The notes beneath the pieces were generated by a model that worked only from the letters and a program-made list of their open reading frames with translations, was not told the DNA's origin and searched no databases. A DNA stretch of 64,000 bases from an uncultured Candidatus Saccharibacteria bacterium. GTDB lineage: Bacteria > Patescibacteriota > Minisyncoccia > Phycocordibacterales > SBAW01. The position numbers and the translations under genes are program-made. This document shows, in pieces, positions 21,467 to 36,919 of the stretch (the first letter of the stretch is position 1; the number at the start of each line of letters is the position of its first letter). Location of the stretch: positions 190,745 to 254,744 of the forward strand of contig CAZTNI010000002.1 in the NCBI GenBank assembly GCA_964615415.1. The letters run 5' to 3'.

Positions 21467-21919
21467 ATGGATACGCTTGGAAGCTTTATCACGGGATTGG
21501 TCATTTCAGCCACCGCTTCAGCAACTGCAGTGACTGGAGGAGCGCATGCTACAGGGGGAGAGCAGGTTACAACCGGAGACAGTTATAGTTCAGTACGAGT
21601 AGAAAATGTTATACACGCAACGAACGGAGGAGGCACGTCGTATACAAAAGTAGAAACAAACACCAACGGACACATTCAGACCGAGGAAAAAACGGAAACA
21701 TTTCCTCCCAGTTCTCACAGTTCAGTGCGAGTTCATGTAGCAACGTCTACTATTGCAAGCACTACAAAGTTGGTGGCAAGCTCTTCAGTTACGCTCGATG
21801 TAATAAGTACTACTGCGTCTTCGTCATCTACTGAGACGCAGAACCTACGAGCACGAATTGCAGAACGAGTTGCAAAGTTATTTGGACAGATATGGGGTTG
21901 GTTTTCATTTACACGGTAA
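21467..21919 (+). CDS. Small secreted protein sharing the TTGD-x-YSS...NV...TNGG motif with the two upstream repeat proteins
   Basis: Starts 3 nt after the upstream stop. GGEQVTTGDSYSSVRVENVIHATNGGG echoes the repeat core. Confidence 0.55.
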   Translation: MDTLGSFITGLVISATASATAVTGGAHATGGEQVTTGDSYSSVRVENVIHATNGGGTSYTKVETNTNGHIQTEEKTETFPPSSHSSVRVHVATSTIASTTKLVASSSVTLDVISTTASSSSTETQNLRARIAERVAKLFGQIWGWFSFTR

Positions 21920-21939
21920 TTACTCACACAACTTCAGAT

Positions 21940-24198
21940 ATGGATCGTAAAAAGATTTTTTCCGGTTTGACCGCGCTCGCACTTACAGTCACCTGTTTTA
22001 CATCAACACCTGCACACGCTGCAGGTCCTAACCTCATACAAAACCCTTCCTTTGAAACCGGAAGCGACGCAACTGCTACTAACTGGACTACGAACAGTTT
22101 TGGTTCAAGTACCGTCGCGTTTAGCATTTCGACCAGTTCAGTACACACTGGTGTGCGTGCTGCCACAATAGACGTCAGCAACTACACCAATGGCGACGCA
22201 AAATGGGTGCACGAACCAGTTACTGTTACTCCAGGCAGCTACTACACAATGAGTTTGTGGTACAAGTCGAGTGTTCAAAGTGCGCTGTACGCCCGCTACA
22301 ACAATAGTGACGTCGATGGCACATCAACAGGATTTCACTGGCTTGCAGACATACCTGCAAGTGACGCATGGACCGAGTACACCGGCAGCATAACTATTCC
22401 TGCAGGTGTAACAGCGATTCAACTTATCCAAACACTAGAGAGTAACGGTTCACTTACTATCGACGATTATTCTCTGACACTCGAAGAAGCACCTACGTTT
22501 AGCGAAGGGCGCGTCACATTTACCTTTGATGATGGTTGGCAGTCTATTTACGACAATGCCCGCCCTATTCTAAACGCAGCCGGAATTCGCACTACTCAGT
22601 ACGTTTACAGTGATGCAATGAACCAGGTGCACGGTCCTATTTACATGACTGCACCAGAACTACTAGAAATGCAGGCAGAGGGTCACGATATTGATGCCCA
22701 CTCTCGCTCACACGCAGACCTCACCACACTCAGCGGATCAGCACTCACGAATGAGATAGGAGGGTCACGCTCAGACCTTATCGCAGCAGGATTCTCTCCT
22801 GTAGACTCATACGCATACCCGTATGGCGCCTACAACAGCGACATACGACAACAAATGATTGACGCTGGTTTTCTTGGAGCACGCACCGTAGACGAAGGCT
22901 ACAATTACGCAGACTCTGACAAGTACACCCTTAAAATTCAGCATGTCACTAACACCACTTCAGCCAGCACCATTAAAGGCTGGATTGATACTGCGCGCAG
23001 CGAAAAATCATGGCTCATTTTGATGTTCCATGAAATTAGAACCGCATCGACAACTTGTGCTGGTGATGATGTAACGGAATGTGCTACTACGGACGTGCTT
23101 CAAGAAGTCGCTTCCTATGTAACTGCGCCTGCCACAGAGATCTGTATACTCACCATGTCCGAAGCGCTCAACAATGTGGCATGTGGCTCGACATCGACCC
23201 CAACAAATCAGGCACCTGTTGTGGCAAATCCAATTCCAGATCAAGACGCCACAGAGGATACATTGTTTAGCCACACCTTCTCGCCAGACACGTTTACCGA
23301 TGCAGACAACGATCCTCTGACCTACACCGCAACAACGCCCCTATGGCTTTCGTTTGACGCGTCTACCCGCACCTTTACCGGCACACCAACAAATGCTGAC
23401 GTAGGAATTCACGCCGTAACAGTTACCGCCACAGACACTACCAATGCTTCAACCACCGACTCATTTACTGTGACTGTTGCAAACAGTAATGGCGCTCCGA
23501 CTATTGCTACAGCAGCATTCAGTATTCCTGAAAATAGTGTGACAGGCACTGTGGTAGGGACCACCACTGCGAACGATAGCGACACAGGCGATACGCTTAC
23601 CTACGAGATAGTGTCCGGAAACACCAGTGGTGCATTTTCTCTCGATGCTACAACTGGCACAATTACCGTTGCACAGTCTTCAGCACTCGACTTTGAAACT
23701 TCTCCCGCGTTCACGTTGGTTATCAAGGTAACCGACAGCAGCAGTCTGTCGGCACAAGCTACAACAACCATTACTCTTACCGATGTTGCAGAAAATACTC
23801 CTAACCCAGACCCTACACCAACTCCACAACCATCCTCTGGCGGGGGCAACGGAGGAGGCGGAGGAGGAGGTGTCGTGCTTGGCCTTATTGGACAGGTAGT
23901 AACCAACCTCAACAATACTGTTCCCACTATCACAACCAACGGAGTTGTGCTCGGTACATCGACACAAAACTTCCTCTTTACAAAACCTCTATATTGGGGT
24001 ATGTATGGAGAGGACGTCGTAGAGCTTCATAAAATCCTTATTTCGCAAGGGTATTTGAAGATCTCTGCGCCAACAGGTTACTTCGGTCCGTTAACGTTTG
24101 CAGCAGTAAAACTGTATCAGCAAGCGCACGGGATCGACATGGTCGGCGTGGTAGGTCCTATTACACGGGCCTCCCTTAACAGTTCTTTCGGTCAATAA
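21940..24198 (+). CDS. Secreted multidomain protein: CBM-like beta-sandwich, CE4 polysaccharide deacetylase (NodB) domain, two cadherin/dystroglycan-like Ig domains, P/T and poly-Gly linker, C-terminal PG_binding_1-like domain
   Basis: Signal peptide. NodB motifs TFTFDDGW, HSRSHADL, AYPYGAY. CADG-like ...DADNDPLTYTATTPLWLSFDASTRTFTGTP. Cadherin-like ...DSDTGDTLTYEIVSGNTSGAFSLDATTGTITV. PG-binding YGEDVVELHKILISQGYL...FGPLTFAAVKLYQ. Confidence 0.8.
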   Translation: MDRKKIFSGLTALALTVTCFTSTPAHAAGPNLIQNPSFETGSDATATNWTTNSFGSSTVAFSISTSSVHTGVRAATIDVSNYTNGDAKWVHEPVTVTPGSYYTMSLWYKSSVQSALYARYNNSDVDGTSTGFHWLADIPASDAWTEYTGSITIPAGVTAIQLIQTLESNGSLTIDDYSLTLEEAPTFSEGRVTFTFDDGWQSIYDNARPILNAAGIRTTQYVYSDAMNQVHGPIYMTAPELLEMQAEGHDIDAHSRSHADLTTLSGSALTNEIGGSRSDLIAAGFSPVDSYAYPYGAYNSDIRQQMIDAGFLGARTVDEGYNYADSDKYTLKIQHVTNTTSASTIKGWIDTARSEKSWLILMFHEIRTASTTCAGDDVTECATTDVLQEVASYVTAPATEICILTMSEALNNVACGSTSTPTNQAPVVANPIPDQDATEDTLFSHTFSPDTFTDADNDPLTYTATTPLWLSFDASTRTFTGTPTNADVGIHAVTVTATDTTNASTTDSFTVTVANSNGAPTIATAAFSIPENSVTGTVVGTTTANDSDTGDTLTYEIVSGNTSGAFSLDATTGTITVAQSSALDFETSPAFTLVIKVTDSSSLSAQATTTITLTDVAENTPNPDPTPTPQPSSGGGNGGGGGGGVVLGLIGQVVTNLNNTVPTITTNGVVLGTSTQNFLFTKPLYWGMYGEDVVELHKILISQGYLKISAPTGYFGPLTFAAVKLYQQAHGIDMVGVVGPITRASLNSSFGQ

Positions 24199-24213
24199 AC
24201 AGGAGAAAGTTGG

Positions 24214-24441
24214 ATGCATGACGAGGCCAACAACGTCCAGGAGGTATTTGCTCCGGACGAACTCGAGCCTGGACGGCTCCCGGGGACCCAGCGTCCTACG
24301 CGGGCAGCCCTGAAAAAGAGGGGGGTGGACTTCTACGAAGGTGGAGGCCATAGCCGGGAACCCAATTTTGATTCAGGAATCGGGGGCGGGGGTCGAAAAT
24401 CGAAGTCTTTCGACCCTTCATTTGGCCAACCCAAAACCTAA
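24214..24441 (+). CDS. Possible small Gly-rich disordered protein. Low confidence; may be non-coding.
   Basis: AGGAGA Shine-Dalgarno 8 nt upstream of the ATG. Strong terminator immediately downstream. Sequence is low-complexity (GGGHS...GIGGGGRKSK). Confidence 0.2.
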   Translation: MHDEANNVQEVFAPDELEPGRLPGTQRPTRAALKKRGVDFYEGGGHSREPNFDSGIGGGGRKSKSFDPSFGQPKT

Positions 24442-24450
24442 ATCACACAC

Positions 24451-24482
24451 GACGCGCATACCCTGCGCGTCGTTTTCTTTTG
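24451..24482 (+). terminator. Rho-independent terminator
   Basis: GACGCGCAtacccTGCGCGTCgttttctttt. 8-bp GC stem plus T-run. Confidence 0.7.
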
Positions 24483-24595
24483 ACAAATAGATATTCGCAC
24501 AGTGTAAGTCACGCACGGTAATCAACATACACGACTCCCACCAAACACTGCGGTATACTGGCACTATTACAAAGTAACTGAAACGCAAGGCCGAT

Positions 24596-26548
24596 ATGGT
24601 GGGAAGAATGTATGGAAGTATTGTATACGTAGCATTTATTAGTCTTTTGTACTGTCTATCCCTGCCAGTAGCATCTGCAGCACCCAACCTCGTACCAAAT
24701 GGCGACTTTGAGGTAGTGTCAAGCAGCGCTTCTATCCCACAACACTGGACGAGCAACTATTGGGGCTCACTGCGTGCAACATTTACCTACCCAGTAACAG
24801 GAAATCCGGGCAAAGCTGCAAAAGTAACTGTCAGCAATCGAACTTCTGGTGACGCAAAATGGGTATCCCCGGAAGTGCCAGCCGCTCCTGGAGAAAAATA
24901 CATCTATAGCAACACGTATCTATCCAGCATACAGACGGAGGTAACCGTGCAGTTTAAAATGTCGAATGGTTCTTACAAATACGTATGGTTGGGGAGTGTG
25001 CCGGCAAGTTCGAACTGGAAGACGTATAGCGGCACCCTCACGGTGCCAAGCGGAGCAGTTGCATTCACTGTCTTCCACCTTATAAACCGCAACGGCTCTC
25101 TTTCTATCGATAACGTGTCTGTTACAAATTCAGCCTCAACACCTCCGCCTCCTCCGACACCCACCCCAGTACCCACCTGCACACTTACAGCAACTCCTGA
25201 CACTATCGAAAAAGGACAGCAGTCGGTATTGACCTGGACCACACAATACGCCAGCTCAACCTCGATTGATAACGGGGTTATTGCTACCGCAACGACAAGC
25301 GGTTCCGCAAACGTCTCTCCATCATCAACAACACTCTACACATTGCACGCTACGGGCGCAGGCGGCACAGTCCAGTGCACCAAAACAGTGACGGTGACCG
25401 ACCCTGTGCCACCACCACCGCCACCAACTAACAACCTTATCAACAACGGTGATCTTGAAACAGCGTCCAGTAACGCGTCATTGCCGGTGGGATGGAACAC
25501 CAATTATTGGGGTTCGTTGCGAGCCACTTTTTCATACCCAAGCACAGGTGCTAGTGGAGGAAAAGCAGCAAAAGTAACGGTTGCAAACTATCAATCCGGT
25601 GATGCTAAGTGGTGGTTTACTCATATTCCCGCATCAAGCAACACGTTGTACCGTTACACCAACACATATACCGCAACAGCACCTTCCAACATAACGGTTG
25701 AATTTAAGATGCAAGATGGCAGCCACCAGTACATGTGGCTCTCTGACGCACCCGCTCAAAGCAGCTGGACGCCATTTACCGCGCAAATTACCGTGCCCGC
25801 AGGCGCAGTATCATTTACCGTGTTCCACTCGCTCGCACGAAATGGCTCACTTACGATCGACAATGTCTCAGTAACTGCCTTGTCACAGAGTTCATTCGCA
25901 GAGCCTATGGTTTCCTTTGTGTTCGATGACGCACTTGCAAGTCAATACAGCAACGCACGATCAATTCTTAATACCGCTGGTTTCAAAGGAGTATTCTCGG
26001 TCATTACGCAGTTTGCAGGCAGCGCTCCGTACATGACATGGAACAATCTCACCACTCTTAAAAACGAAGGTCACGAAGTGAATAGTCATACGCGCACTCA
26101 TGCAGACTTAACCACTCTTGCTGCAGCCAGTCTCCAGAGCGAAATACAAGGCTCATATGACGACCTTATTGCGCGCGGATTTGCTCCTAAAACACTCGTA
26201 TATCCGTACGGAGGCACAAGTCCTGCAGTGAAACAAGTAGTGCAAGATGCTGGGTATCTGGGCGCACGCGGGAGCTACTATGGGTTTAATGCGCCAGTGA
26301 CCGACCGTTATGCACTCTACGATATCCGTCTTGATAAAACCTCCACACTCAGTGGCACAAAAGCAGTTATAGACCAAGTAATTGCAAACAAGCGCTGGCT
26401 CGTATTTGAACTTCACGATATCTTGCCAAGCGGCGGCGATGAATACACCATTACGCCAACACTCCTACAATCAATCGTGTCGTATCTTAAAGAAAAAGGG
26501 GTAAAAGTAGTGACGCTTGAAGAGGGGGTAGGGCTTATGACGCCGTAG
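24596..26548 (+). CDS. Secreted protein with two tandem CBM-like beta-sandwich domains and a CE4 polysaccharide deacetylase domain. Paralog of the N-terminal half of the 21940 gene.
   Basis: Repeated PNLVPNGDFE.../NLINNGDLE...WxxNYWGSLRATF(T/S)YP modules. NodB motifs FVFDDALAS, HTRTHADL, VYPYGG. Confidence 0.8.
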   Translation: MVGRMYGSIVYVAFISLLYCLSLPVASAAPNLVPNGDFEVVSSSASIPQHWTSNYWGSLRATFTYPVTGNPGKAAKVTVSNRTSGDAKWVSPEVPAAPGEKYIYSNTYLSSIQTEVTVQFKMSNGSYKYVWLGSVPASSNWKTYSGTLTVPSGAVAFTVFHLINRNGSLSIDNVSVTNSASTPPPPPTPTPVPTCTLTATPDTIEKGQQSVLTWTTQYASSTSIDNGVIATATTSGSANVSPSSTTLYTLHATGAGGTVQCTKTVTVTDPVPPPPPPTNNLINNGDLETASSNASLPVGWNTNYWGSLRATFSYPSTGASGGKAAKVTVANYQSGDAKWWFTHIPASSNTLYRYTNTYTATAPSNITVEFKMQDGSHQYMWLSDAPAQSSWTPFTAQITVPAGAVSFTVFHSLARNGSLTIDNVSVTALSQSSFAEPMVSFVFDDALASQYSNARSILNTAGFKGVFSVITQFAGSAPYMTWNNLTTLKNEGHEVNSHTRTHADLTTLAAASLQSEIQGSYDDLIARGFAPKTLVYPYGGTSPAVKQVVQDAGYLGARGSYYGFNAPVTDRYALYDIRLDKTSTLSGTKAVIDQVIANKRWLVFELHDILPSGGDEYTITPTLLQSIVSYLKEKGVKVVTLEEGVGLMTP

Positions 26549-27326
26549 TAGGGAGTTCTGCAAGCTTACTAATGATGTCTTTAATGAGGCGCTCGGTATC
26601 TTCAGGACCGAGCACTTCTTCTGTTTTAATACCAGTTTCTTTTACGACAGAGTCGTTTCCGCCTTCTTCAAGCGCATCACCAATGTAGAGCATTTCCGCA
26701 ACAGTAACGTCTGCAAGTTCAACAAGTTGTCGAATACCGTATGCCTTGTTGACACCCTGATGCGTAATATCGATCGACGTTGCTGCATTTACTCCTATAG
26801 AAAATTCTGGTAGCCGACGCTTAAGGGCATCATAGAGCGGCTTCCGTTTCTCCCGAGTAGGATCCCACGCACGCTTTTCTTCAACAGGTGCTTTTTGGCC
26901 TAATGCAGAAAACGTGATCTGCGCACCTCTATCTTCTATGCGTTCACCCCACTCCTTCGGACGACTAGGATCATCTTCTGCAAAGCCAGTTTCTGTCATC
27001 GCTTCTTTCAAAGCTTGCATTACCTTTTCGCGTTCAATAGGGTTAAATGCACGATCATACTGTACCCACCACTTTCCCTTACGATACACATAACACCGCG
27101 CTGCATTCATAGGGAAGAGAAAGAGATTCTCAAAATGAGCATCCTCGGGGAGCGCAGGAAGAAACTGAGTCTCCATTTGGGCAAACGAGGCGCCTGAAAG
27201 CACCGCAACTTTTGTTTTACTCATAAGGTCTGCTAACAGAGACCCCATTTCAAGAGTGAGTGGCTGTTTACTTTCAGCGAGTGTTCCATCGAGGTCAAAC
27301 GCGACAAGTCGTGGTTTAAAATCCAT
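26535..27326 (-). CDS. HAD-IIB hydrolase resembling eukaryotic-type phosphomannomutase (PMM/Sec53 family)
   Basis: N-terminal FDLDGTL. SIGVNAATSIDITHQGVNKAYGIRQL fits the PMM GGqiSfDvfPxGWDK block. MLYIGDALEEGGNDSVV fits FFGDKT..GGNDyEI. PEDTERL fits PEDT. Confidence 0.65.
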   Translation of the reverse strand: MDFKPRLVAFDLDGTLAESKQPLTLEMGSLLADLMSKTKVAVLSGASFAQMETQFLPALPEDAHFENLFLFPMNAARCYVYRKGKWWVQYDRAFNPIEREKVMQALKEAMTETGFAEDDPSRPKEWGERIEDRGAQITFSALGQKAPVEEKRAWDPTREKRKPLYDALKRRLPEFSIGVNAATSIDITHQGVNKAYGIRQLVELADVTVAEMLYIGDALEEGGNDSVVKETGIKTEEVLGPEDTERLIKDIISKLAELPTTAS

Positions 27327-27331
27327 TGCAG

Positions 27332-29257
27332 TTATTGCAGATTATCGGGAAGTAAAATTTTCAATAATTTCTTTATCGACACCTTAGCGACACCCACTAC
27401 TGTATCAGCGCCCCCGTAATAAATGAAGAGCGTGTCTTTGCGTGGCACCACTCCGCAGGAAAAAACAACATTGCGGATCTGTCCAATGCGTTCATAGGGA
27501 GTAAGCGGCTCAAAAATAGTGTCTATGGTGCGAGAAATGATAATAGAAGGGTTGTGCAGATCGAGCAGTACCGCACCCAGACGATAGGTCGTTGTTTTTG
27601 ACACCCCGTGATAAATAAGGAGCCACCCTTTTTCCGTTTTAATAGGCGGACCAGCGATCCCGATTTTCTGTGAGTCCCACATGCCTGGACGAGGACCCAT
27701 AATCTCAATACAGCGAGTAAGGCGATTTTTCTTAAAATCAAGTGAGTCAAGAAAATCCGCGCACAGTTGGCTATTAATGCGGTGCAGCAACATATACTGC
27801 CCGCCGATTTTCTCGGGCATAAGGCACATGTTTTTATCATTGACGTTTTCTGGCGTAGCGATGACCGGTTTACTCCACGCGTTCCATTTTTTTGCAAGAA
27901 AATCCTCGACGGAGATCGTCGTTAAAGCAACATGCGTCGGATGAACACCGTCGAATGCGGTATAGGTCATGTATAAGGTGTCTTCAATGCGCGTGATGCG
28001 TGGATCTTCGCAGCCGGAATTACCATCTGGACTGCCGAGCTTTTTCTCAAATTCTTCACGCGGCACGTACACTGGTTCCGGCAATCGTTCTGTTATTTTT
28101 GTCCCATTTTTAGTTGCAGCGTATCCTAATACAGACGTATTATCGTCACCCATAGCACGATAGAGTAAGTGTACTGAGTCCTCAAGCTCAATTGCAGCCG
28201 CATTAAACACGGCTTTTTTCTCCCATGCATGTTCAGGAACAGGCGAAAGAATAGGATTTTCTTTGGCACGCACCACCAATTCCTCTCTTTTTTCAGGAAT
28301 CAGAGCAGAAAGAAGATCATCAAGATTGAGTGAGGCTTTAGCACACACTGTGTCTGCTGCACCGTAGTAAATATCTATTTTGCCGTTTTTGTGAAGCATG
28401 GCTCCTGACGGAAACACAATATTTGGCACCATGCCATACCGCTCATAGATTTCCTCCGGCACCATGATAGGGCCTTTTGTTTTGCCAACTATTTTTGTCG
28501 GGTCGTTAAGGTCAAGCAGCATTGCTTCGATACCAAACACACGCTCTCCGCCGCCAAAATAATTTTGAATGTAGGAATAAAATACGAGCCACCCGTACTT
28601 GGTTTTAATAGGAGCGGAACCAACTTCTACATGGTCAGTATCAAAACGGAGTGGATTAATGGTGTGATCTCCCAATTCTGCATGCCACTTTTCCCAAAAC
28701 GAGAGGTCCCAGAGTTCACTAAGATCATCGCACTGCGCAACCGCGATACGTGCCGGCGGCTCATCAGTGTGAGCAGTGAGAATAACTGTAATTTTACCGT
28801 TTATCCGTTCAGGGAAGAGCGCCGCAGCCTTAGCATTAAACGGCGTTACTAAATGTTTTTCATCAATGACCTCTAAGTCTTTAGAAATAGCACAGGCGAC
28901 TTTAATATTGCCCGGACCAAACGGCATACCACCAAGCGCGGTATAAAAAACAATGCATTTCCCTTCAAAATAGGTTACTCGCGGGTCTTCGCAACCGTAC
29001 TTTTCCCATGGTTCTTCCGGAACAATAAACTGTCGACGATTTTGGAAATGTTCACCGTCAAGCGAGAGTGCTTTTCCAATAGTCGAGATACCTGCTGGCG
29101 TCATAAGCGCATCAGGACGCCCAAGGGCACGATAGAGAATATGGGTTATGTTGCCAACCTTAACAGGAGAAGGGTTAAACGTAGCGCGCGCCTCCCATTG
29201 CTTATCTGCAATAGGAGCAACCAGAGGATTATTTTGACTCCGACGTACAACGTACAT
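27332..29257 (-). CDS. Protein with two tandem GH130 (DUF377) beta-mannoside phosphorylase/glycosidase domains
   Basis: Each half has NP(L/I)(V/L)xP...W...FNP...YRAxG...GCEDPR(V/I)T...KGWL(V/L)(F/I)YH...(D/N)(I/L)YYGxADT, the GH130 5-bladed propeller signature. Confidence 0.8.
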   Translation of the reverse strand: MYVVRRSQNNPLVAPIADKQWEARATFNPSPVKVGNITHILYRALGRPDALMTPAGISTIGKALSLDGEHFQNRRQFIVPEEPWEKYGCEDPRVTYFEGKCIVFYTALGGMPFGPGNIKVACAISKDLEVIDEKHLVTPFNAKAAALFPERINGKITVILTAHTDEPPARIAVAQCDDLSELWDLSFWEKWHAELGDHTINPLRFDTDHVEVGSAPIKTKYGWLVFYSYIQNYFGGGERVFGIEAMLLDLNDPTKIVGKTKGPIMVPEEIYERYGMVPNIVFPSGAMLHKNGKIDIYYGAADTVCAKASLNLDDLLSALIPEKREELVVRAKENPILSPVPEHAWEKKAVFNAAAIELEDSVHLLYRAMGDDNTSVLGYAATKNGTKITERLPEPVYVPREEFEKKLGSPDGNSGCEDPRITRIEDTLYMTYTAFDGVHPTHVALTTISVEDFLAKKWNAWSKPVIATPENVNDKNMCLMPEKIGGQYMLLHRINSQLCADFLDSLDFKKNRLTRCIEIMGPRPGMWDSQKIGIAGPPIKTEKGWLLIYHGVSKTTTYRLGAVLLDLHNPSIIISRTIDTIFEPLTPYERIGQIRNVVFSCGVVPRKDTLFIYYGGADTVVGVAKVSIKKLLKILLPDNLQ

Positions 29258-29285
29258 ACCGTAGTACTTAGTATACTCGAACTTT

Positions 29286-30440
29286 TTATGCGCCAGCTGG
29301 ACGCAATACAGCCTGTTGGTTGGTCATTAGTTTTTCTACAAACTCGCGTATGTCGGCATGTGCAACGGCAACATGCTTGTCACCCGCACCGTAATACACA
29401 AACAAGGTATTTCCCATGACTACAGCGCCGCATGCATACACAACACCAGGTTTCCAGTCGTTTTCATACTGTTTCTCTGGCTCAAGCACAGGGTGATTAG
29501 AGCGATACAGCACACGGGTTGGATCATCAAGGTCAAGAAGCATGGCGCCAATTTTATACTTGTTTGGATCACGTTTATCCATTGCATGATAAAGTAGCAG
29601 CCATCCTTTAGGAGTTTTAATAGGAGGAGGTCCGGCACCACGTACCCAGCTATCCCAATACTCCTCCCGAGCAGTGGGATGGTAGACGCTGTGGATGTAC
29701 GCTTCGTTATTAAATTGAGATAACGAGTCAACGTATTCAATTTGAATAGTAGGGGAAATACTGTGTAAAACAGCATACTTGCCGTGTATTCTTTCCGGAA
29801 ACATCACCCAATTTTTGTTAATTTCTCCAGGAGGAGAGAGGAAGGCGGTTGGTTTCCACTCCCAGGACTGTTGTCTAAATTTAGGAAGGGGGAGTGACGT
29901 AAGTCCCATGCGGATAAATCCCCACCCATCAAACGCGACAAAGGTCATATATAGTTGCCCATTCATGCTCACAATACGAGGATCTTCAACACCGCCCCAA
30001 CCTCCACCAGAGGGGTACGTTACCGTGTCGTACGTAAGAGTGCCATAAGACAGCCGACCCTTTGGCGCGCCAAAACTGCGGTCTGGCGCATAGACTGGGT
30101 AGGGAAGACGGTCGAAGTGAATACCGTCGGCACTTGAGGCATACCCGATGCGCGAAATACCGTCTTTACCCATCGCCCGGTACAGCAAATGCACCCGACC
30201 ATCAAAATAAAATGCTGCTGGATTGAAAACGGCTTCAGATTCCCACCAATGTTCGCGTATTGGTTTTAAAATAGGATTTTCTGCTTCGCGCACGAGGGCA
30301 ATAGGCCGGCGAATTTGACGAAGCCAAAAGACAAAGAGAGCGACACATACAACCAAAACGACTATAGTCGCAGCAAAAAATGCTATACCGTTTCCGTGGT
30401 ATATCTCCATTACAAAAGCCGCAAGCAAAGAAGTCTCCAT
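29286..30440 (-). CDS. GH130 (DUF377) family protein with an N-terminal membrane anchor
   Basis: TM segment IAFFAATIVVLVVCVALFVFWL. Motifs ENPILKP...WESEAVFNPAAF...LLYRAMG...VEDPRIV...KGWLLLYHA...YYGAGD. Confidence 0.8.
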   Translation of the reverse strand: METSLLAAFVMEIYHGNGIAFFAATIVVLVVCVALFVFWLRQIRRPIALVREAENPILKPIREHWWESEAVFNPAAFYFDGRVHLLYRAMGKDGISRIGYASSADGIHFDRLPYPVYAPDRSFGAPKGRLSYGTLTYDTVTYPSGGGWGGVEDPRIVSMNGQLYMTFVAFDGWGFIRMGLTSLPLPKFRQQSWEWKPTAFLSPPGEINKNWVMFPERIHGKYAVLHSISPTIQIEYVDSLSQFNNEAYIHSVYHPTAREEYWDSWVRGAGPPPIKTPKGWLLLYHAMDKRDPNKYKIGAMLLDLDDPTRVLYRSNHPVLEPEKQYENDWKPGVVYACGAVVMGNTLFVYYGAGDKHVAVAHADIREFVEKLMTNQQAVLRPAGA

Positions 30441-30469
30441 TGCCTTACCGTGTCTCTATATTGTACACC

Positions 30470-30823
30470 CTAGTTCCTGCCGTATTTGTCTTGGAAGCGT
30501 ACTATATCGTTTTCTTCAAAGACACCGAGAGCAACTTCAAGAAATTGCAGGCCCTGCGGCCCCGCCTCTACTCTATGTTTAGTATTTTTTGCAACAAAAA
30601 ACTCGTCTCCAGGCTGCACGTGAGAGATCTTTTCACCTACCGTCACACTTCCCGAACCTCGGAGGATTTTCCATTCTTCATCGCGGTGGGCGTGTTGCTG
30701 CAAACTCAGCGATTGACTAGGTTCTACGGTGATTATTTTTACCGTCGAAGGCTCATTAAGAGTAAAACGCTCAAAAAATCCCCACGGACGCTCTTCTTTG
30801 TAATAATGTTGAAAACTTTTCAT
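30470..30823 (-). CDS. Cupin resembling the mannose-6-phosphate isomerase type II (ManC C-terminal) cupin domain
   Basis: EERPWGFFERF...VKIITVEPSQSLSLQQHAHRDEEWKILRGSGSVTVGE...ENDIVRFQDKYGR matches the PMI type II cupin pattern. Confidence 0.7.
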   Translation of the reverse strand: MKSFQHYYKEERPWGFFERFTLNEPSTVKIITVEPSQSLSLQQHAHRDEEWKILRGSGSVTVGEKISHVQPGDEFFVAKNTKHRVEAGPQGLQFLEVALGVFEENDIVRFQDKYGRN

Positions 30824-30834
30824 AATACAGACGA

Positions 30835-31236
30835 TCAGCGATTATATTTATCTTCCAAGCGTTCGATATCATTTTCATCAAATTCCCCAAAAGCAATTTC
30901 CACCAACAGCAGACCGTCGTCTTTGTGTCCCTCGAGGCGATGAAGGGTAGTACGCGGGATAAAAAAACCTTCTGGTTTATATATTTCCACGCGCTCGGTG
31001 CCCACTGTGACATATCCCGCACCAGATACAATGCGCCAAAATTCATCGCGCTTTTGATGTCGCTGTAAACTAAGGGCTTCGCCAGGTTTTACAAAAATAA
31101 TCTTTACCGTTGAGTGCTCTTGGTGAGTTAATTTTTCAAACATCACCTTTTCAAGCTCTGTGCGTTCATATGCACTCAACTGGCGAGCATGATCAGGAAA
31201 TAAATCCGTAGATTGCATGCATATACGGTAGCACAC
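30835..31236 (-). CDS. Second PMI-type cupin (paralog of 30470..30823). N-terminus uncertain.
   Basis: VKIIFVKPGEALSLQRHQKRDEFWRIVSGAGYVTVG...ENDIERLEDKYNR. Alternative internal Met starts possible. Confidence 0.65.
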   Translation of the reverse strand: MCYRICMQSTDLFPDHARQLSAYERTELEKVMFEKLTHQEHSTVKIIFVKPGEALSLQRHQKRDEFWRIVSGAGYVTVGTERVEIYKPEGFFIPRTTLHRLEGHKDDGLLLVEIAFGEFDENDIERLEDKYNR

Positions 31237-31317
31237 CGCTCAGATCTTCAGAACACTTTACAAAGTTGGAAAATATAGTAGAGTCCTAAAGGAAGCGTTT
31301 TTGGATTGGAGGAGAAC

Positions 31318-31617
31318 ATGTTTCAACGAATGCAGTCCTGGATCCCGCCCTGGGGAACTCGATCCCTGAGGAAGTTTGAGGCGTTTGTAAAGAACCATGA
31401 TTGTCGATCCGTGACAGTCAGTACTCTTGTCGCTGTGCCCGTAAACAGCGACGGGGAAGGGGATGTTTTTCTTGTCGCAAAAACCAGAACACCTGAGGGC
31501 AAGAAAGCGTCGTACAAATACAAAACTTCTTTGCATGGCCTGAACGCTCGTGCACAAGCCTTGGGTCGTCTCCTTAGGCGAAGAGTTTCCTCCCACATCA
31601 CGGTCGCTGTTGCCTAA
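31318..31617 (+). CDS. Hypothetical small basic protein
   Basis: Strong GGAGGAG Shine-Dalgarno 5 nt upstream of the ATG. Intrinsic terminator immediately after the stop. No recognisable family. Confidence 0.35.
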   Translation: MFQRMQSWIPPWGTRSLRKFEAFVKNHDCRSVTVSTLVAVPVNSDGEGDVFLVAKTRTPEGKKASYKYKTSLHGLNARAQALGRLLRRRVSSHITVAVA

Positions 31618-31627
31618 GAATTCCATT

Positions 31628-31664
31628 GAGTCCATACCCTATGAGTATGGACTCTTTTCTTTTT
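31628..31664 (+). terminator. Rho-independent terminator (+ strand)
   Basis: GAGTCCATACcctatgaGTATGGACTCttttcttttt. 10-bp stem plus T-run. Confidence 0.65.
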
Positions 31665-32524
31665 CATAGTTCCTCTATACGCAGGTTTTTAAATTGCACG
31701 TCCATAAAGTCGGTACGGAGGCCTACGGGCGCCTTAGCTCGTAAGGGCTCGGTCTGGGCATAGTTCCCCGTATCGGTCGCCTCAAGCAAGAGTTCCCATG
31801 AATCTTCTAAAGAGCGACGCAGGTAGAGCCGCACCGTAACAGAGGAATCAGAGTTCGTAATTGCTTCACTTTGTAAAGAAAACCACTGTCGCTGCGGCAG
31901 GAGACTGGTGTCGTCTTGCGAGCCAACATACGTTCCTTCAAATGCTGCGGCTTGGGCCATGGTGTAGTACACTCCTTCCACTTTTTTCTTAATCACTGCA
32001 GTGCCGTCTACCCGCACACCTGCGTAATACAAATTGTCACTATCGACATGTCGCATCATAAATAAAATACCGTTTGAAGCATTGCGATTAGAGCTTGGCA
32101 AAAAATTGTCTCGCTCTATATAAAAATCTTCTGAGATACGCACCTGTTCCCACGCACTACGAGTAAGCAGACGAAATATATTTTGTGGCTGCGCACCATT
32201 TTTCGTATCTTCTGGATCACTTGCTTGATATGCTCGATACCACTGGTCGGTTTCGGACAAGTTACCAAAGAGTGTACTTCCTGTGTGGTTACTAATACGT
32301 AGCCGGCCACCTGAATTGAGCCAAAAGTACGGACTTTTACTTTCCTCTGGAGTCGCGGCTTCTTCTAACACCCCATCTACATTGAAACTGTATATAAATG
32401 GAGAGGGCACAGAAGCATAATTTTTCTCATGGGGTGCAAAGATAACAAAGGCGAGGGTAAGCCCTCCCGCAACCGCAAGCAAAGTTCCTCCTAGGTGTTG
32501 TATTGATTCAGGTACCTTCACCAC
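31664..32524 (-). CDS. Secreted/anchored concanavalin-like (LamG/DUF1080-like) jellyroll protein. Paralog A of the 46125..46946 gene.
   Basis: N-terminal hydrophobic anchor. Shared blocks with paralog B: PQNIFRL, LYYAGVRVDG.A.IKKK, LLP...W, NNSD.SVT..LY, RTDFMDV.F.N. Confidence 0.7.
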   Translation of the reverse strand: MVKVPESIQHLGGTLLAVAGGLTLAFVIFAPHEKNYASVPSPFIYSFNVDGVLEEAATPEESKSPYFWLNSGGRLRISNHTGSTLFGNLSETDQWYRAYQASDPEDTKNGAQPQNIFRLLTRSAWEQVRISEDFYIERDNFLPSSNRNASNGILFMMRHVDSDNLYYAGVRVDGTAVIKKKVEGVYYTMAQAAAFEGTYVGSQDDTSLLPQRQWFSLQSEAITNSDSSVTVRLYLRRSLEDSWELLLEATDTGNYAQTEPLRAKAPVGLRTDFMDVQFKNLRIEEL

Positions 32525-34131
32525 GTATATGTTTTTGCCGACACGTTAGTAATTATTGCATCTGCACTACCCATAGCAGGGTCCCAGGATTCTATACCAA
32601 TGCCACCTGATGCATTTGCAAGAGTTGCATTAATAATCTCTTCTCCGTCAAACAAACACTTAACTGTTGTACCGATACTGACCGCACCAATCGTGTGAGT
32701 TCCTGGTCCCACCTCGGGGGCTTTTGCTTCGCGCAATACGAATATGTCTACAGGAGTACGCTCCTGCAGCTGTACAGTGCCTGCATCAGAAAACACACAC
32801 GCACGCGCTATTTGCTCACTCTGTACGTCAAACAACAACATCATGTATCCATGATCCCACGCAGCAGATACTTCTACTTCATATTCGTCCCATGTATAGG
32901 TACCGTCCAATGTTGCAAGAGCGCCCGTAGTGCTTGAAGCAGCACGCAGTCGCATGCCACCACTTTCCATAGTCATAGTGCCCCAATCACTCTCCCATCC
33001 ACTCTCTACATGCGGAGTTTCGCCGTAAGGAAGAGCTTTTGGAGACGCCGCCTGCAAACGGGCAAGCAGGTCGTCACCCGACCATTCTGGCCGCACCGGA
33101 ATGCGTTTAATTAGAAACGCTCGGGGATTAGGATAATTAAAGGTAAAATTTCCTCTATTCCAGTTTTGATAAAACGCCAACGAATATGACTGCAGTGCGA
33201 TACGCATTATAGTTGCTTGCGCCTCGGGGTTATTGCTTATATTTTGTCCATAATCACCAAACGGGAAAGCGAATCCAGTAACGGGTATATCAAATGCCTG
33301 TTCTATATGTTGTTTAGCAGTAGCCAAGTCGGTGTGTATGCGGGCAGCATACTCCTCGTGAGTTTCGAGACGGTTGTGTGCCGTAAGCCACGCACGGTTC
33401 GACAGCGCATTATCTTGCAAAGTACCTTCACTGTTTGTAGGTACAGTAGTGTGTATATCTTGCCCGTGTGACTGTACGGTCCACCGACCGGTCGAGAGCA
33501 TAAACTCTACTTCGTCCCGATTCAGATAATAGGTGCTGTTGTTACCAAGTGAGTGAGACGGGAGCAAAAACATAACAGCACTATAATCCAGCGCCTCCAG
33601 AAGAGGTTGTACAGGATAGAAGCTTTCTTTCGCACCATCATCAAAAGTAAGCAGAAATGATTTTTCCGGTAATTGTTTTTCCCCACGGATAAAAGCTTCA
33701 AAATCCGCATAAGAAACCGTTTGCCACCCCGCGGCCTTAAGAGCAAACAGCTGATCTTTAAAGGTATCAAGGCGTACGTTGGCTCCCTCAAAACCAGACA
33801 TTGTATCAGGTGCGCCTGTACTGTTGGAGACAATAGAGTGATAGGTCAGCACGGGAACCCCTTGCGCGTACGACGTACGCACAGTAGGGAGGAGTTCGTG
33901 CGTAATCGACTCAGGCACTGCAGCAAGGAGACTAATTCCTTGTTGTCGTGCAAGATATTCAGCACGATACTGCAACGCCATAACAGACATCTTTTGCCGT
34001 TCGAAAGAGAATCGCAAATAATCTATAGCGTAAAAACTACCAAAGGAAATGATCGTTGCCAAAATAAGCACCACGATAGAAAATCGTATTTTGGTGTCCA
34101 CTATACTGCGCTGTAACGTAAGTAGTGCCAT
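32518..34131 (-). CDS. Membrane-anchored CE4 polysaccharide deacetylase with a C-terminal lectin-like jellyroll domain
   Basis: N-terminal TM. VLTYHSI...LLTFDDGAKESFYPV...AFPFGDYG NodB motifs. C-terminal ~170 aa ending ...GGIGIESWD...AIITNVSAKTY resemble a concanavalin-like domain. Confidence 0.8.
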   Translation of the reverse strand: MALLTLQRSIVDTKIRFSIVVLILATIISFGSFYAIDYLRFSFERQKMSVMALQYRAEYLARQQGISLLAAVPESITHELLPTVRTSYAQGVPVLTYHSIVSNSTGAPDTMSGFEGANVRLDTFKDQLFALKAAGWQTVSYADFEAFIRGEKQLPEKSFLLTFDDGAKESFYPVQPLLEALDYSAVMFLLPSHSLGNNSTYYLNRDEVEFMLSTGRWTVQSHGQDIHTTVPTNSEGTLQDNALSNRAWLTAHNRLETHEEYAARIHTDLATAKQHIEQAFDIPVTGFAFPFGDYGQNISNNPEAQATIMRIALQSYSLAFYQNWNRGNFTFNYPNPRAFLIKRIPVRPEWSGDDLLARLQAASPKALPYGETPHVESGWESDWGTMTMESGGMRLRAASSTTGALATLDGTYTWDEYEVEVSAAWDHGYMMLLFDVQSEQIARACVFSDAGTVQLQERTPVDIFVLREAKAPEVGPGTHTIGAVSIGTTVKCLFDGEEIINATLANASGGIGIESWDPAMGSADAIITNVSAKTYTW

Positions 34132-34151
34132 AGAATTTTACCTAGACTGTG

Positions 34152-35531
34152 TTAACGCGTACCCCACCGCCGATTTTGAATAGTAAGGAGGGCATAGAAG
34201 AGAAGGAACGATAGTATCACCATGTTGAAGATGCCCCACACAAACAGATACGGCCAGTATTTATTATCTTTACTAACGTATCGGTAGTAGACCACTATCA
34301 CAAACGCCACCAACAACATGCCGGCGCAGTAGTAGATAGGCAAATTGCCATGCACAATTGGGTTGTACACAAGCGCTCGTGTAGCCATAATCGGCGCAAG
34401 TATAGTCACCAGAATAAGAGGGAAAAAGTACGTAAACGCCACAAATGCGTCTCGTTTAATGATGAATTTGCTTGCGCGAAGCGAATTTACAAACCACCCT
34501 TTCTTCCAGCGCACCTGCTGTTTAAAGAGGGTTTTTATATTTGTAGGACAGATAGTAAACGCCTGCACTTCATCGGTATATACGGTTGCATAGCCTCGCT
34601 CCAGAACTCGGTTAGTAAGCGCACGATCGTCGCCCCATGTAGTTGGAAGTCCGAGGAATTTTTCTTCGAGCCATTCGTCCATAATAGGAGCTACCACTGA
34701 TTTGCGGTACGCGGACGAACATCCACTACAACAAAACACGGTAAAGAAGGTTGACTCCGCTGCTTTCAGGATGCGAAACGACATAAAGTAATACGCCGCC
34801 TGCATTTTAGTAAGGAAGTTAGTGTCGGCATTTTCCGGGTCAGCATGTGCACAGACAGCCCCTACAGATGGGTTACGGAACGGTTCTATCAGCTTTCTGA
34901 ATGTCGTTGGCTCAATGTAACTATCACTATCGAGCTGTACGACAATTTCTCCACGAGCGATCCGAAACCCTTCATACATGCCGTGTCGCTTGCCGCGATT
35001 TTTCTCCCATGTCACCACAACCAAGTTCGGATACTGCGCTTGTTTTTCTGCAAGGACCGCACCGGTGCCGTCTGTCGATCCGTCATTAATAATAATGACT
35101 TCGAGCTTATCTTTTGGATAATCGCTCGCAAAACATTTATCGACGGTTTTTCCTATGGCTCCTTCTTCGTTTTTACAAGGCACCACATATGTCACCATAG
35201 GCTCATAGGGGATTTCTTCGGGCACAGACGCAGCCTTAAGGAGTCGTTTTGAACGATCGTACATAACCGCTCCCGCAACACGCGACAACTGAAATGTGGT
35301 CACAAACAAGGTGTAGAGCACAATAAGGGGGTCAAAGAGCAGATGCTCAGTTGATTTTGACTTTACGATCAGGATAAGCAGTATGCCGACACCCGCTAAT
35401 ATGAGCGAAATAAGCAGGTTGCCTCGTGTATGCGAAGCGGGCTCGCGCACCACCGTCGCATTATTTTTTAGAAGCGGAGCAAAAGAAGTACTCCGCACTC
35501 GAATGTCGTTCATGGGGGTACGCATGCTCAT
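34152..35531 (-). CDS. Processive family-2 glycosyltransferase (cellulose/chitin/hyaluronan/PNAG synthase-like) with TM helices on both sides of the catalytic domain
   Basis: VVPCKNEE...IINDGSTDGT (D), QLDSDSY (DxD), GDDRALT, QVRWKKGW (QxxRW processivity motif). Two N-terminal and 3-4 C-terminal TM helices. Confidence 0.85.
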   Translation of the reverse strand: MSMRTPMNDIRVRSTSFAPLLKNNATVVREPASHTRGNLLISLILAGVGILLILIVKSKSTEHLLFDPLIVLYTLFVTTFQLSRVAGAVMYDRSKRLLKAASVPEEIPYEPMVTYVVPCKNEEGAIGKTVDKCFASDYPKDKLEVIIINDGSTDGTGAVLAEKQAQYPNLVVVTWEKNRGKRHGMYEGFRIARGEIVVQLDSDSYIEPTTFRKLIEPFRNPSVGAVCAHADPENADTNFLTKMQAAYYFMSFRILKAAESTFFTVFCCSGCSSAYRKSVVAPIMDEWLEEKFLGLPTTWGDDRALTNRVLERGYATVYTDEVQAFTICPTNIKTLFKQQVRWKKGWFVNSLRASKFIIKRDAFVAFTYFFPLILVTILAPIMATRALVYNPIVHGNLPIYYCAGMLLVAFVIVVYYRYVSKDNKYWPYLFVWGIFNMVILSFLLFYALLTIQNRRWGTR

Positions 35532-35545
35532 GTGGGGTTTTGTTT

Positions 35546-36919
35546 TTATCTACCAATGCCGCGATATGCGATTCCTGCTTCTTCAAATGCTTCTTTGGAG
35601 AGACAGTTGCGCCCATCGATTACACTCGTAACGCCGTACTCTTTCAGGATAGTAGGGGAAAGGCTGGTAAACACATCATGTGCGGTCGCAATAACCACTG
35701 CATCTGCACCACGCAACGCTTCGCTCAGTGTCAGCGCGGTGGAATGCTCATGAATAAACGGATCGAACGAGCGCACGCGAGCAGCACGATTGGTAAGGAT
35801 CTTTGCTATCTCAAGCGCCGGACTCTCGCGCAAATCGCTCATATTTGCCTTATAGGAAAGCCCGAGGAGTGCCACGGTCGCATGCTCAATACTCTTGCCT
35901 TGCTTACGCAACTCTTCTTCAAGGAGAGAAACAGTAAAGGTCGGCATGCCGTTATTAATGTCTCGTGCCAAGGAAAGGAATCGATGCGTGAAGCCGTTTT
36001 CCTTCGCATAGCGAATAAGGTAGTACGGGTCGACAGGAATGCAGTGCCCGCCCACCCCACACCCTGGCGTATGCAACATAAAACCGAATGGCTTTGTCGC
36101 CGCACCTTGGAGCACGTGCAGTACGTCGATATTAAGTTTCGCAAACGACATGGCAAGCTCGTTCACGAACGCAATATTCACATCACGGAAAGAATTTTCC
36201 ACCATTTTGACCGCCTCTGCTTCTTTAATGGTGTGCATACGGTGGATAGGTGCACGCAAAATAGATGTATAGAATGCCGCAGCTTGTTCGCGCGCTTCTT
36301 TCGTTGTTGCGCCAAGTACGCGTGAGATTTTTTCTACCGGCCAGCGAGCGTCACCTGGATTGATACGTTCTGGACAATGTGCGAAGCCGAAATCTTTTCC
36401 TGCCTTCAGTCCAGAAATTTTTTCCATAGCAGGAATAAGAATCTCTTCTGCAGTACCAGGATTCACAGTAGATTCTGAAATGATCAATTGCCCCTTGCGC
36501 ATATGACGAGCAACCGCTTCACACGCACTCTTCAGGATCGTAAGGTCGGGAGTATGCGTATGATCTACCGGAGTAGGCACACAAATAATAACCGTGTCTG
36601 CATCTTTCACCGCGGCAAAGGTACTCTGCGCAACAAATGGTTCACGCCTAAGAGCCGCAGTAAAAACTTCATCCAGGTCGGGCACATCTGCACGACGTAT
36701 CTGGGCACGCTTTTTAGCGTCCACATCGATTCCTGTTACGGTATATCCTCGATCCCGTGCAAGAAGGGCGAGCGGCAAGCCGACATACCCGAGCCCCACG
36801 ACAACGACATGAGCAATCGCTACAGAAGAATGCGCAGGGGATGCTGCGGCGCTGACTGGAACTCCTCGAGACGCTTCGTGCTGTTTTTTCTCAGGTTGAA
36901 TTATTTGTTTCATATACAA
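35546..36919 (-). CDS. Nucleotide-sugar 6-dehydrogenase of the UDP-N-acetylhexosamine dehydrogenase (WecC/WbpA/TviB-like) subfamily
   Basis: Rossmann VVVVGLGYVGLPLALLARDRGY. ICVPTP. Catalytic-Cys motif GGHCIPVDP (the GGHC form rather than GGSC). C-terminal UDP-binding domain. Confidence 0.85.
   Translation of the reverse strand: MYMKQIIQPEKKQHEASRGVPVSAAASPAHSSVAIAHVVVVGLGYVGLPLALLARDRGYTVTGIDVDAKKRAQIRRADVPDLDEVFTAALRREPFVAQSTFAAVKDADTVIICVPTPVDHTHTPDLTILKSACEAVARHMRKGQLIISESTVNPGTAEEILIPAMEKISGLKAGKDFGFAHCPERINPGDARWPVEKISRVLGATTKEAREQAAAFYTSILRAPIHRMHTIKEAEAVKMVENSFRDVNIAFVNELAMSFAKLNIDVLHVLQGAATKPFGFMLHTPGCGVGGHCIPVDPYYLIRYAKENGFTHRFLSLARDINNGMPTFTVSLLEEELRKQGKSIEHATVALLGLSYKANMSDLRESPALEIAKILTNRAARVRSFDPFIHEHSTALTLSEALRGADAVVIATAHDVFTSLSPTILKEYGVTSVIDGRNCLSKEAFEEAGIAYRGIGR

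Follow-up and report, generated by a model that had tools for sequence, protein, structure and literature searches.

What does a bacterium do with a gene cluster that joins beta-mannoside phosphorylase-like proteins to candidate enzymes of mannose phosphate interconversion, and does such a cluster degrade mannosides taken up from elsewhere, build a surface polymer or cycle an internal one? The question is raised by a stretch of 64,000 nucleotides (the window) from an uncultured Candidatus Saccharibacteria bacterium (assembly GCA_964615415.1, contig CAZTNI010000002.1, positions 190,745 to 254,744), in which an operon of five minus-strand open reading frames (ORFs) occupies positions 26535-31236 with intergenic gaps of 5, 28, 29 and 11 nt. 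From our comparative analysis, this operon is part of a module conserved across many lineages of the candidate phyla radiation (CPR, Patescibacteria), and the residues of its three GH130 modules place all of them in the beta-1,2 branch of the family. We tentatively read the operon as one local version of a cytoplasmic module for beta-1,2-mannosides and mannose phosphates that could cycle an endogenous, mannogen-like reserve, a reading to which we give somewhat less than an even chance. The parts of the operon are as follows.

26535..27326, minus strand: HAD-IIB phosphohexomutase-like protein, PgmH type (263 aa)
27332..29257, minus strand: double GH130 protein (641 aa)
27332..28282, minus strand: C-module of the double GH130 protein (residues 326-641 and the stop codon)
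28283..29257, minus strand: N-module of the double GH130 protein (residues 1-325)
29286..30440, minus strand: third GH130 module, with an N-terminal transmembrane helix (384 aa)
30321..30386, minus strand: predicted transmembrane helix of the third GH130 protein (residues 19-40, IAFFAATIVVLVVCVALFVFWL)
30470..30823, minus strand: cupinB, a stand-alone cupin of the phosphomannose isomerase (PMI) type II C-terminal kind (117 aa, PF01050)
30835..31236, minus strand: cupinA, an extra PMI-type cupin paralogue (133 aa from a GTG start, PF01050)

Full-length relatives of the double GH130 protein were found in at least 594 species genomes, which is a lower bound obtained with one genome scanned per species. 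Identity to the protein is 75-88% over the full length in more than 120 clusters, and its named homologues are all from Paceibacterota, Parcubacteria, Kaiserbacteria or Adlerbacteria; on this basis the source would be a CPR bacterium of Paceibacteria type. The best 80 of the at least 594 relatives (46-78% identity) carry names of many CPR lineages, such as Nomura-, Moran-, Jorgensen-, Campbell-, Magasanik-, Woese- and Gottesmanbacteria, and some further labels that are evidently automatic. We compared synteny, with about 10 kb per side, in the 80 loci most similar to the query, 79 of which hold a full-length double GH130 gene and 53 of which have enough flanking DNA. Of the 79 loci, 71 have the third GH130 gene, which stands directly upstream on the same strand in 65. 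Within the 53 well-flanked loci, the third GH130 gene is adjacent in 49, the cupin in 27, the HAD gene in 26 and all three in 20. Clustering of the neighbouring ORFs gave the cupin (in 36 loci) and the HAD gene (in 34) as the commonest neighbours after the GH130 genes, with no other family in more than 17, and the remaining neighbours are housekeeping genes (deformylase, formyltransferase, HisRS, DnaE, Pth, signal peptidase and a hibernation factor). Across lineages in which the HAD gene lies either upstream or downstream, the cupin and HAD genes stay on the same strand with gaps close to zero. In the 79 loci, the conserved neighbours of the module include no transporter, no secreted glycanase or mannanase and no ManC, and the neighbour clustering yielded no flippase or exporter conserved with it. 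The proposal made from the letters of the window, that these genes form one mannose-phosphate/beta-mannoside unit with short gaps, is thus strengthened, the same gene order recurring in dozens of genomes.

In 17 related loci, the same operon as the cupin and GH130 genes includes a PF01467 cytidylyltransferase-like gene of about 160 aa, which either overlaps the PgmH-like HAD gene or lies 2 nt upstream of it (e.g., L016 5367-5843, L020 7095-7598, L022 7033-7581, L037 5213-5686 and L014 7516-8004). Its best NCBIfam match is domain II of rfaE (D-glycero-beta-D-manno-heptose-1-phosphate adenylyltransferase), at 69 bits and below the cut-off, which suggests an anabolic branch with an activated donor in those lineages; the gene is absent from the window. 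A published CPR genome that has no glucokinase carries two GH130 genes and a mannose-6-phosphate isomerase in its metabolic scheme (PMC7143001).

The three GH130 domains, two of them in one ORF, had been recognised in the window from motifs and were recovered by the PF04041 profile, which matches the 641-aa protein in two stretches (E 4e-96, 322 bits) and the 384-aa protein once (3e-46, 158 bits). The modules are 31-40% identical to one another and all are closest to the Thermoanaerobacter beta-1,2-mannoside phosphorylases (identities of 35-44%); the best matches in a sequence search of the PDB were 7FIP (3e-58) and 9FJ8 (3e-57) for the C-module and Teth514_1788 for the N-module (1e-39) and the third module (1.7e-52). 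The best NCBIfam model is NF052550, the beta-1,2-mannobiose phosphorylase equivalog, on which the C-module scores 268.6, the third module 233.6, the N-module 182.9 and the fused 641-aa protein 446.7 bits; assignment of the modules to this equivalog was rejected because all these scores fall under the cut-off of 450 bits. The N-module scores 183 bits against the phosphorylase model and 72.5 bits against that of BT3780, a hydrolase, and the loss of its phosphate site (described below) is therefore an independent event within the phosphorylase lineage. An AlphaFold2 model of the 641-aa protein shows two five-bladed propellers (pLDDT 88.4, pTM 0.74) with 9GPH/9FJ8 (Teth514_1788) as best PDB match (target-normalised TM-score 0.91); lower-ranked fold matches include GH130_3 hydrolases (about 1e-20) and the Leishmania proteins MTP4 and MTP2 (1e-10 to 1e-9).

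Two features of the GH130 active site bear on function. Specificity for beta-1,2 linkages is set by a Glu beside the catalytic Asp together with a Lys (K199 in BT3780, K184 in Uhgb_MS), and phosphorylases hold the phosphate nucleophile with three basic residues where hydrolases carry carboxylates instead (E227 and E268 in BT3780) (PMC4599007, PMC12814180). We mapped the phosphate ligands by published residue numbers, with the numbering verified on the aligned Uhgb_MS sequence (E136, D137, K184, R202 and R242), and scored conservation in 78 double GH130 proteins and 72 third-module orthologues. The catalytic Asp (D91 in the N-module, D418 in the C-module and D153 in the third module), the Asn and Asp of the -1 subsite (N28/N352/N73 and D302/D618/D354) and the beta-1,2 Glu/Lys pairs (E90/K143, E417/K475 and E152/K209) are invariant in all three modules. 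The comparison with Leishmania drawn in the sequence-only reading agrees with this presence of the beta-1,2 determinants throughout.

At the phosphate site, the modules part company. The C-module is the only one of the three with the full set of basic residues (R493, K531 and H550): N352, R367, E417, D418, K475, R493, H550, Y558 and D618 are invariant in 78 of 78 sequences, and K531 is Lys in 74 and Arg in 4, so that by its residues this is a complete active site of the beta-1,2-mannoside phosphorylase type. The third module keeps N73, R88, E152, D153, K209, Y295 and D354 invariant or nearly so, and its phosphate site is, on the alignment, incomplete by one ligand: the first basic position is S227 (Ser in 35, Arg in 15, Asn in 12 and Ala in 7 of the 72 orthologues), the Arg of the second is displaced by one residue in 56, and the His is kept in 61. 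The N-module retains its sugar-binding and catalytic residues (N28, R43, E90, D91, K143 and D302, each in 78 of 78) and lacks all three phosphate-binding basics, having T164 (74 of 78), H209 (62 of 78, with Gln in 15) and S228 (65 of 78) in their place and F241 where the Tyr would be. Acidic residues neighbour the replaced positions (D165 in 78, D208 in 75 and E211 in 77 sequences), and in this spacing and these invariant neighbours the N-module resembles a hydrolase. The GH130 copies had been taken collectively for beta-mannoside phosphorylases; that assignment fits the C-module, whereas neither the N-module nor the third module is likely to be a plain phosphorylase.

A short L2 loop is also seen in the alignment of the window modules. 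In characterised enzymes, a short L2 loop and fewer phosphate contacts go with transferase rather than phosphorylase behaviour, and the R202A substitution, at the position that is Ser in the third module, lowers phosphorylase activity 16-fold (Ladeveze 2025, PMC12814180). A comparable split is known from Leishmania, where the paralogues diverge at the phosphate site, the transferase MTP2 having His161 and the phosphorylase MTP4 having Arg150 (Franceus et al., PMC10913872). We offer both parallels as analogies.

The third module also differs from the others in its N-terminal extension. A hydrophobic segment of 22 residues precedes the GH130 domain (Kyte-Doolittle mean of 3.12 over 19 residues), with a charge of -2 before it (E2, E12) and +3 after it (R41, R44, R45); by the positive-inside rule this predicts an N-out/C-in helix with the catalytic domain on the cytoplasmic side, and signal peptides are absent. 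The helix occurs in 22 of the 72 orthologues, namely those of the window and its closest relatives. In about 25 others (e.g., L014, L020, L022, L023, L028, L029, L039 and L062), a Lys-rich low-complexity tail of 30-80 residues (KKKIVKKKVIKK...) takes its place, which may be a cationic tail that binds membranes or polyanions. In about 13-20 more, it is replaced by an extra N-terminal domain of about 280-335 aa that proved, in the 13 examined, to be a GH130-like propeller without the catalytic Glu-Asp pair; the third GH130 protein reaches 610-720 aa in L034, L041, L042, L044, L047, L055, L056, L058, L061, L064, L071, L080 and L081. Since the extension varies by lineage, membrane anchoring would be lineage-specific, with no sign of an extracellular enzyme. 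The membrane-anchored copy, together with the adjacent polysaccharide genes, had been taken to make synthesis conceivable; the helix itself is confirmed, its catalytic domain is predicted to be cytoplasmic and its spread is limited. In one locus (L068, 9848-12880), all three GH130 modules and the helix are joined in a single ORF of 1011 aa, and additional GH130 copies beyond the conserved pair were seen in L009 (12978-13994) and L056 (4276-5316).

The HAD-IIB protein matches PF03332, the phosphomannomutase (PMM) family, at 40.1 bits (cut-off 22.4), as well as PF08282 and the HAD-IIB model TIGR01484 (68 bits). It had been described as a eukaryotic-type PMM; the relation to PMM within HAD-IIB is real, and the eukaryotic type is not, for the protein aligns end to end (residues 6-253) with the Lactococcus lactis enzyme PgmH, an alpha-phosphoglucomutase (4BND), at 3e-42, against 1e-16 to 5e-5 for eukaryotic PMMs. 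Residues D11, D13 and T15 of motif I, K194, and D217, G223, N224 and D225 of motif IV are invariant in 33 orthologues, as are R133, G143 and K151 of the cap, while S44 is kept in 31 and Q144 in 32. The window protein and 4BND have in common the HAD-IIB core motifs, the cap arginine and the cap motif 'GQKA', where PMMs carry 'GR'; sequence identity between the two is moderate. By its sequence this is a PgmH-type phosphohexomutase, and the gene context (GH130 linkage in 26 of 53 loci) argues that it would act on mannose phosphates.

Both cupins, recognised earlier as PMI-type, gave full-length profile matches to PF01050 (MannoseP_isomer; cupinB 77.4 and cupinA 71.3 bits, cut-off 23.6), and they are 44% identical to each other. 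The profile matches of the five proteins lie well beyond what chance would give. The cupin that accompanies the module in other genomes is orthologous to cupinB, whose relatives are annotated by NCBI as 'phosphomannose isomerase type II C-terminal cupin domain'. Across 41 sequences cupinB is invariant or nearly so at R12-P-W-G, S40, Q42, H44, R47, E49, W51, H83, D106, D112 and R116. These include the ligand set Q42-x-H44...E49...H83 (H44 in 40, the other three in all 41), which is presumably of the same kind as the zinc site of type I PMI. The RPWG motif is important for type II PMI catalysis; it is present in cupinB (34-40 of the 41 sequences), whereas cupinA, which keeps all four ligands, has ELEKVM there. 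CupinA was found in the window locus only among the 80 compared. A sequence search of the PDB gave only weak generic cupin matches (oxalate decarboxylase, 7ZVM/7ZVY). The window cupins thus share the profile, the ligand set and, in cupinB, the RPWG motif with the type II PMI domain of the ManC/AlgA-type enzymes, which are bifunctional; unlike these, the window cupins stand alone without a nucleotidyltransferase domain (cupinB is only 117 aa long), and a second, divergent cupin without RPWG accompanies the first.

Taken as a pathway, these parts would connect as follows. The cupin would interconvert fructose 6-phosphate and mannose 6-phosphate, the PgmH-type mutase would interconvert mannose 6-phosphate and alpha-mannose 1-phosphate, and the C-module would act as a reversible, inverting beta-1,2-mannoside phosphorylase, (Man)n + Pi <-> (Man)n-1 + alpha-Man1P. 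The third module and the N-module, which retain the mannose subsites and the catalytic Asp, would most likely serve a different function on this glycan: the former, held by its membrane tether or cationic tail, may start or extend the chain, drawing on a donor outside free phosphate chemistry, and the latter may hydrolyse or transfer. The substrate could be an endogenous, mannogen-like reserve of beta-1,2-mannan or oligomannosides, built from fructose 6-phosphate and mobilised back to it without hexokinase or ATP, by analogy with the mannogen cycle of Leishmania, where fold-related enzymes are divided into transferases and phosphorylases. A route that needs no GDP-mannose is plausible on this gene content. 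We infer the activities, the cytoplasmic location and the direction of flux from gene content, synteny, residue conservation and fold.

Comparison with characterised systems places the operon between several of them. Teth514_1788/1789 of Thermoanaerobacter sp. X-514 (GH130_6) are the best sequence and fold matches of all three modules, with a common catalytic Asp, beta-1,2 Glu and Lys, and short L2 loop, and in both organisms at least two GH130 genes lie side by side and are linked to mannose 1-phosphate metabolism. The window differs in that two modules are fused in 641 aa, in that two of its three modules lack one or all of the phosphate basics, and in that its cluster has neither the ABC transporter and GH5 enzyme of the Thermoanaerobacter cluster (PMC4264767) nor a ManC-type guanylyltransferase or GT4, the PMI-type cupin and PgmH-type mutase being there instead. 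The GH130_3 beta-1,2-mannosidases (BT3780, BACOVA_03624) and the N-module alike keep the catalytic Asp, the Glu and the Lys and have lost the three phosphate basics, which in GH130_3 are replaced by carboxylates (PMC4599007). Secretion sets those hydrolases apart from the N-module, which is predicted to be cytoplasmic and is fused to a phosphorylase-type module. The Leishmania mannogen system (GT108, MTP1-7) resembles the window modules, by analogy, in the five-bladed propeller, in the same inverting chemistry on beta-1,2-mannosides, in being a paralogue family that differs at the phosphate site, and in a cytoplasmic location (predicted for the window) tied to hexose phosphate metabolism. The resemblance is one of fold only, at 14-18% identity, since phmmer gave no match between the window modules and the MTP chains; by sequence the window proteins are GH130 and not GT108, and neither the module fusion nor the membrane tether has a counterpart in Leishmania.

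We favour an endogenous reserve because the module is widespread and strongly conserved while external beta-1,2-mannans are rare, because no importer travels with it, because its paralogues have diverged in the manner of the Leishmania transferase and phosphorylase paralogues, and because the rfaE-II-like gene that overlaps the HAD gene in 17 loci could supply an activated donor. Several points weigh against it. Phosphorylases usually run in the degradative direction in vivo, and some ManC proteins have PF01050 domains without isomerase activity. PgmH of L. lactis, the closest characterised relative of the HAD enzyme, is specific for glucose phosphates, and no CPR bacterium is known to contain a beta-1,2-mannan. 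Linkage of the cupin and HAD genes to the GH130 pair extends to only about half of the loci, and the comparison drew on the loci nearest to the query rather than on a random set. Moreover, every bacterial GH130 enzyme characterised so far is catabolic or serves salvage (PMC4264767, PMC4599007). The same record favours a catabolic salvage module, in which beta-1,2-mannosides from a host cell or the environment would be degraded in the cytoplasm by the phosphorylase and the hydrolase-like N-module, and mannose 1-phosphate would enter glycolysis at fructose 6-phosphate with no kinase needed, a scheme already put forward for the GH130 systems of Thermoanaerobacter, Listeria and gut Bacteroides. 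CPR bacteria live as scavenging epibionts, the N-module has its basics replaced beside conserved acidic residues much like the change that made the GH130_3 hydrolases, and phosphorolysis would be a useful ATP-free entry route for hexose in kinase-poor cells whose genomes often have no glucokinase (PMC7143001). Salvage, the main rival, is nevertheless rather unlikely in our estimate: the 79 loci conserve no transporter or secreted glycanase of the sort that accompanies the Thermoanaerobacter genes, a module found in at least 594 species from many habitats, with a very conserved double GH130 protein, sits poorly with the rarity of beta-1,2-mannans in nature, and three to four specialised modules, with a nucleotidyltransferase in some lineages, exceed the needs of simple degradation.

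Biosynthesis of an envelope component or solute is improbable. The third module and the N-module would then be GH130-fold beta-mannosyltransferases that use mannose 1-phosphate or NDP-mannose and act on a membrane lipid, wall polymer or compatible solute, with the phosphorylase module for editing or recycling. The helix or cationic tail of the third module, the rfaE-II-like nucleotidyltransferase in 17 operons, the envelope polysaccharide genes next to the operon in the window and the dual phosphorylase and transferase activity of beta-1,2-active GH130 enzymes would all agree with this, yet the transferase activity of the known enzymes is weak and of doubtful physiological relevance (PMC12814180), the catalytic domain is predicted to be cytoplasmic with no flippase or exporter conserved beside it, the adjoining polysaccharide genes are of N-acetylglucosamine (GlcNAc) type and not syntenic elsewhere, and about 13-20 lineages have a soluble dead propeller as the extension instead of an anchor. 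Slightly less probable again is that the operon is a loose collection in which the GH130 pair is the only functional unit, the HAD protein being a housekeeping alpha-phosphoglucomutase, the cupin unrelated and the linkage a side effect of genome compactness. Among solved structures, the nearest to the HAD protein is indeed a phosphoglucomutase, the HAD and cupin genes adjoin the GH130 genes in only about 50% of the well-flanked loci, and the other neighbours are housekeeping genes; against this, the cupin (36 loci) and the HAD gene (34) stand well above every other family (at most 17), both keep strand and near-zero gaps despite differing gene orders, and their predicted chemistry connects mannose 1-phosphate exactly to fructose 6-phosphate.

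As for gene calls and expression signals, a second, independent set of gene predictions for this DNA, from a Logan assembly of SRR14271373, matches four of the five ORFs and starts cupinA at an ATG at 31218, which would give 127 aa. No further paralogues of the five genes were found in the window, and tRNA and Rfam scans of it gave no matches. Between 26000 and 32000, predicted promoters and terminators did not exceed the numbers expected from shuffled sequence (8 found, 7.4 expected, and 7 found, 5.9 expected), and no obvious Shine-Dalgarno motif precedes any of the five start codons; operon status is assigned because of spacing and synteny only. Upstream of the operon is a gene-free gap of 427 nt (31237-31663), which contains a perfect 10-bp hairpin (31628-31654) immediately after the stop codon of a 286-aa gene; the hairpin has a T-run on the plus strand only and no Rfam match. 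At the other end, a convergent deacetylase gene of 650 aa shares 14 nt of its 3' end (26535-26548) with that of the HAD gene.

A polysaccharide island flanks the operon on both sides (31664-36919 and 21892-26548), with the following genes.

21892-26548: two large deacetylases with CBM4_9 domains, of which the 768-aa one adds He_PIG, cadherin and PG_binding domains
31664-32524: 286-aa protein without a family match
32518-34131: PgaB-like deacetylase
34152-35531: NodC/PgaC-like GT2 synthase
35546-36919: UDP-sugar dehydrogenase

From its gene content, the island looks like an exopolysaccharide system with GlcNAc chemistry, similar to poly-N-acetylglucosamine or chitin. A GlmS-like gene elsewhere in the window (14152-15984; 610 aa, GATase and SIS domains) fits a supply of amino sugar rather than of mannose for it. 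Homologues of island genes occur near the module in only two other loci (L055, with the GT2 and the dehydrogenase, and L003, with one deacetylase). A functional link between the operon and the GT2/deacetylase island was rejected on these two grounds, the lack of synteny elsewhere and the GlcNAc-type chemistry, and the island therefore gives no support to a surface beta-mannan, for which the sequence-only reading had invoked it.

The enzyme family and the individual reactions are already known. In the literature that we searched, GH130 in CPR bacteria was no more than mentioned in passing ('two enzymes of family GH130') for one Microgenomates genome, and the fused tri-modular set with graded loss of the phosphate site, conserved across Patescibacteria, appears to be undescribed. 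These bacteria make up a large share of bacterial diversity and have tiny genomes that often lack hexokinase and other core steps. As the GH130 pair is conserved in at least 594 species, and the double GH130 protein shows 75-88% identity among its closest 120 and more clusters, the pair is likely to be central to their sugar economy. A broader and more doubtful proposal is that the CPR bacteria at large both synthesise and use up a cytoplasmic beta-1,2-mannan ('mannogen') as a carbohydrate reserve, an ATP-free hexose buffer at the level of fructose 6-phosphate, in which the modules without a phosphate site would be GH130-fold synthases or primers that evolved independently of the GT108 enzymes of Leishmania. 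If an internal beta-1,2-mannan is indeed cycled, it would be the first storage carbohydrate proposed for CPR bacteria and a bacterial parallel to Leishmania mannogen. The three paralogous modules, one with a full phosphate site, one with a single ligand lost and one with all three lost, are in themselves a natural experiment, and the series could show how the scaffold of a glycoside phosphorylase turns into a hydrolase or a transferase.

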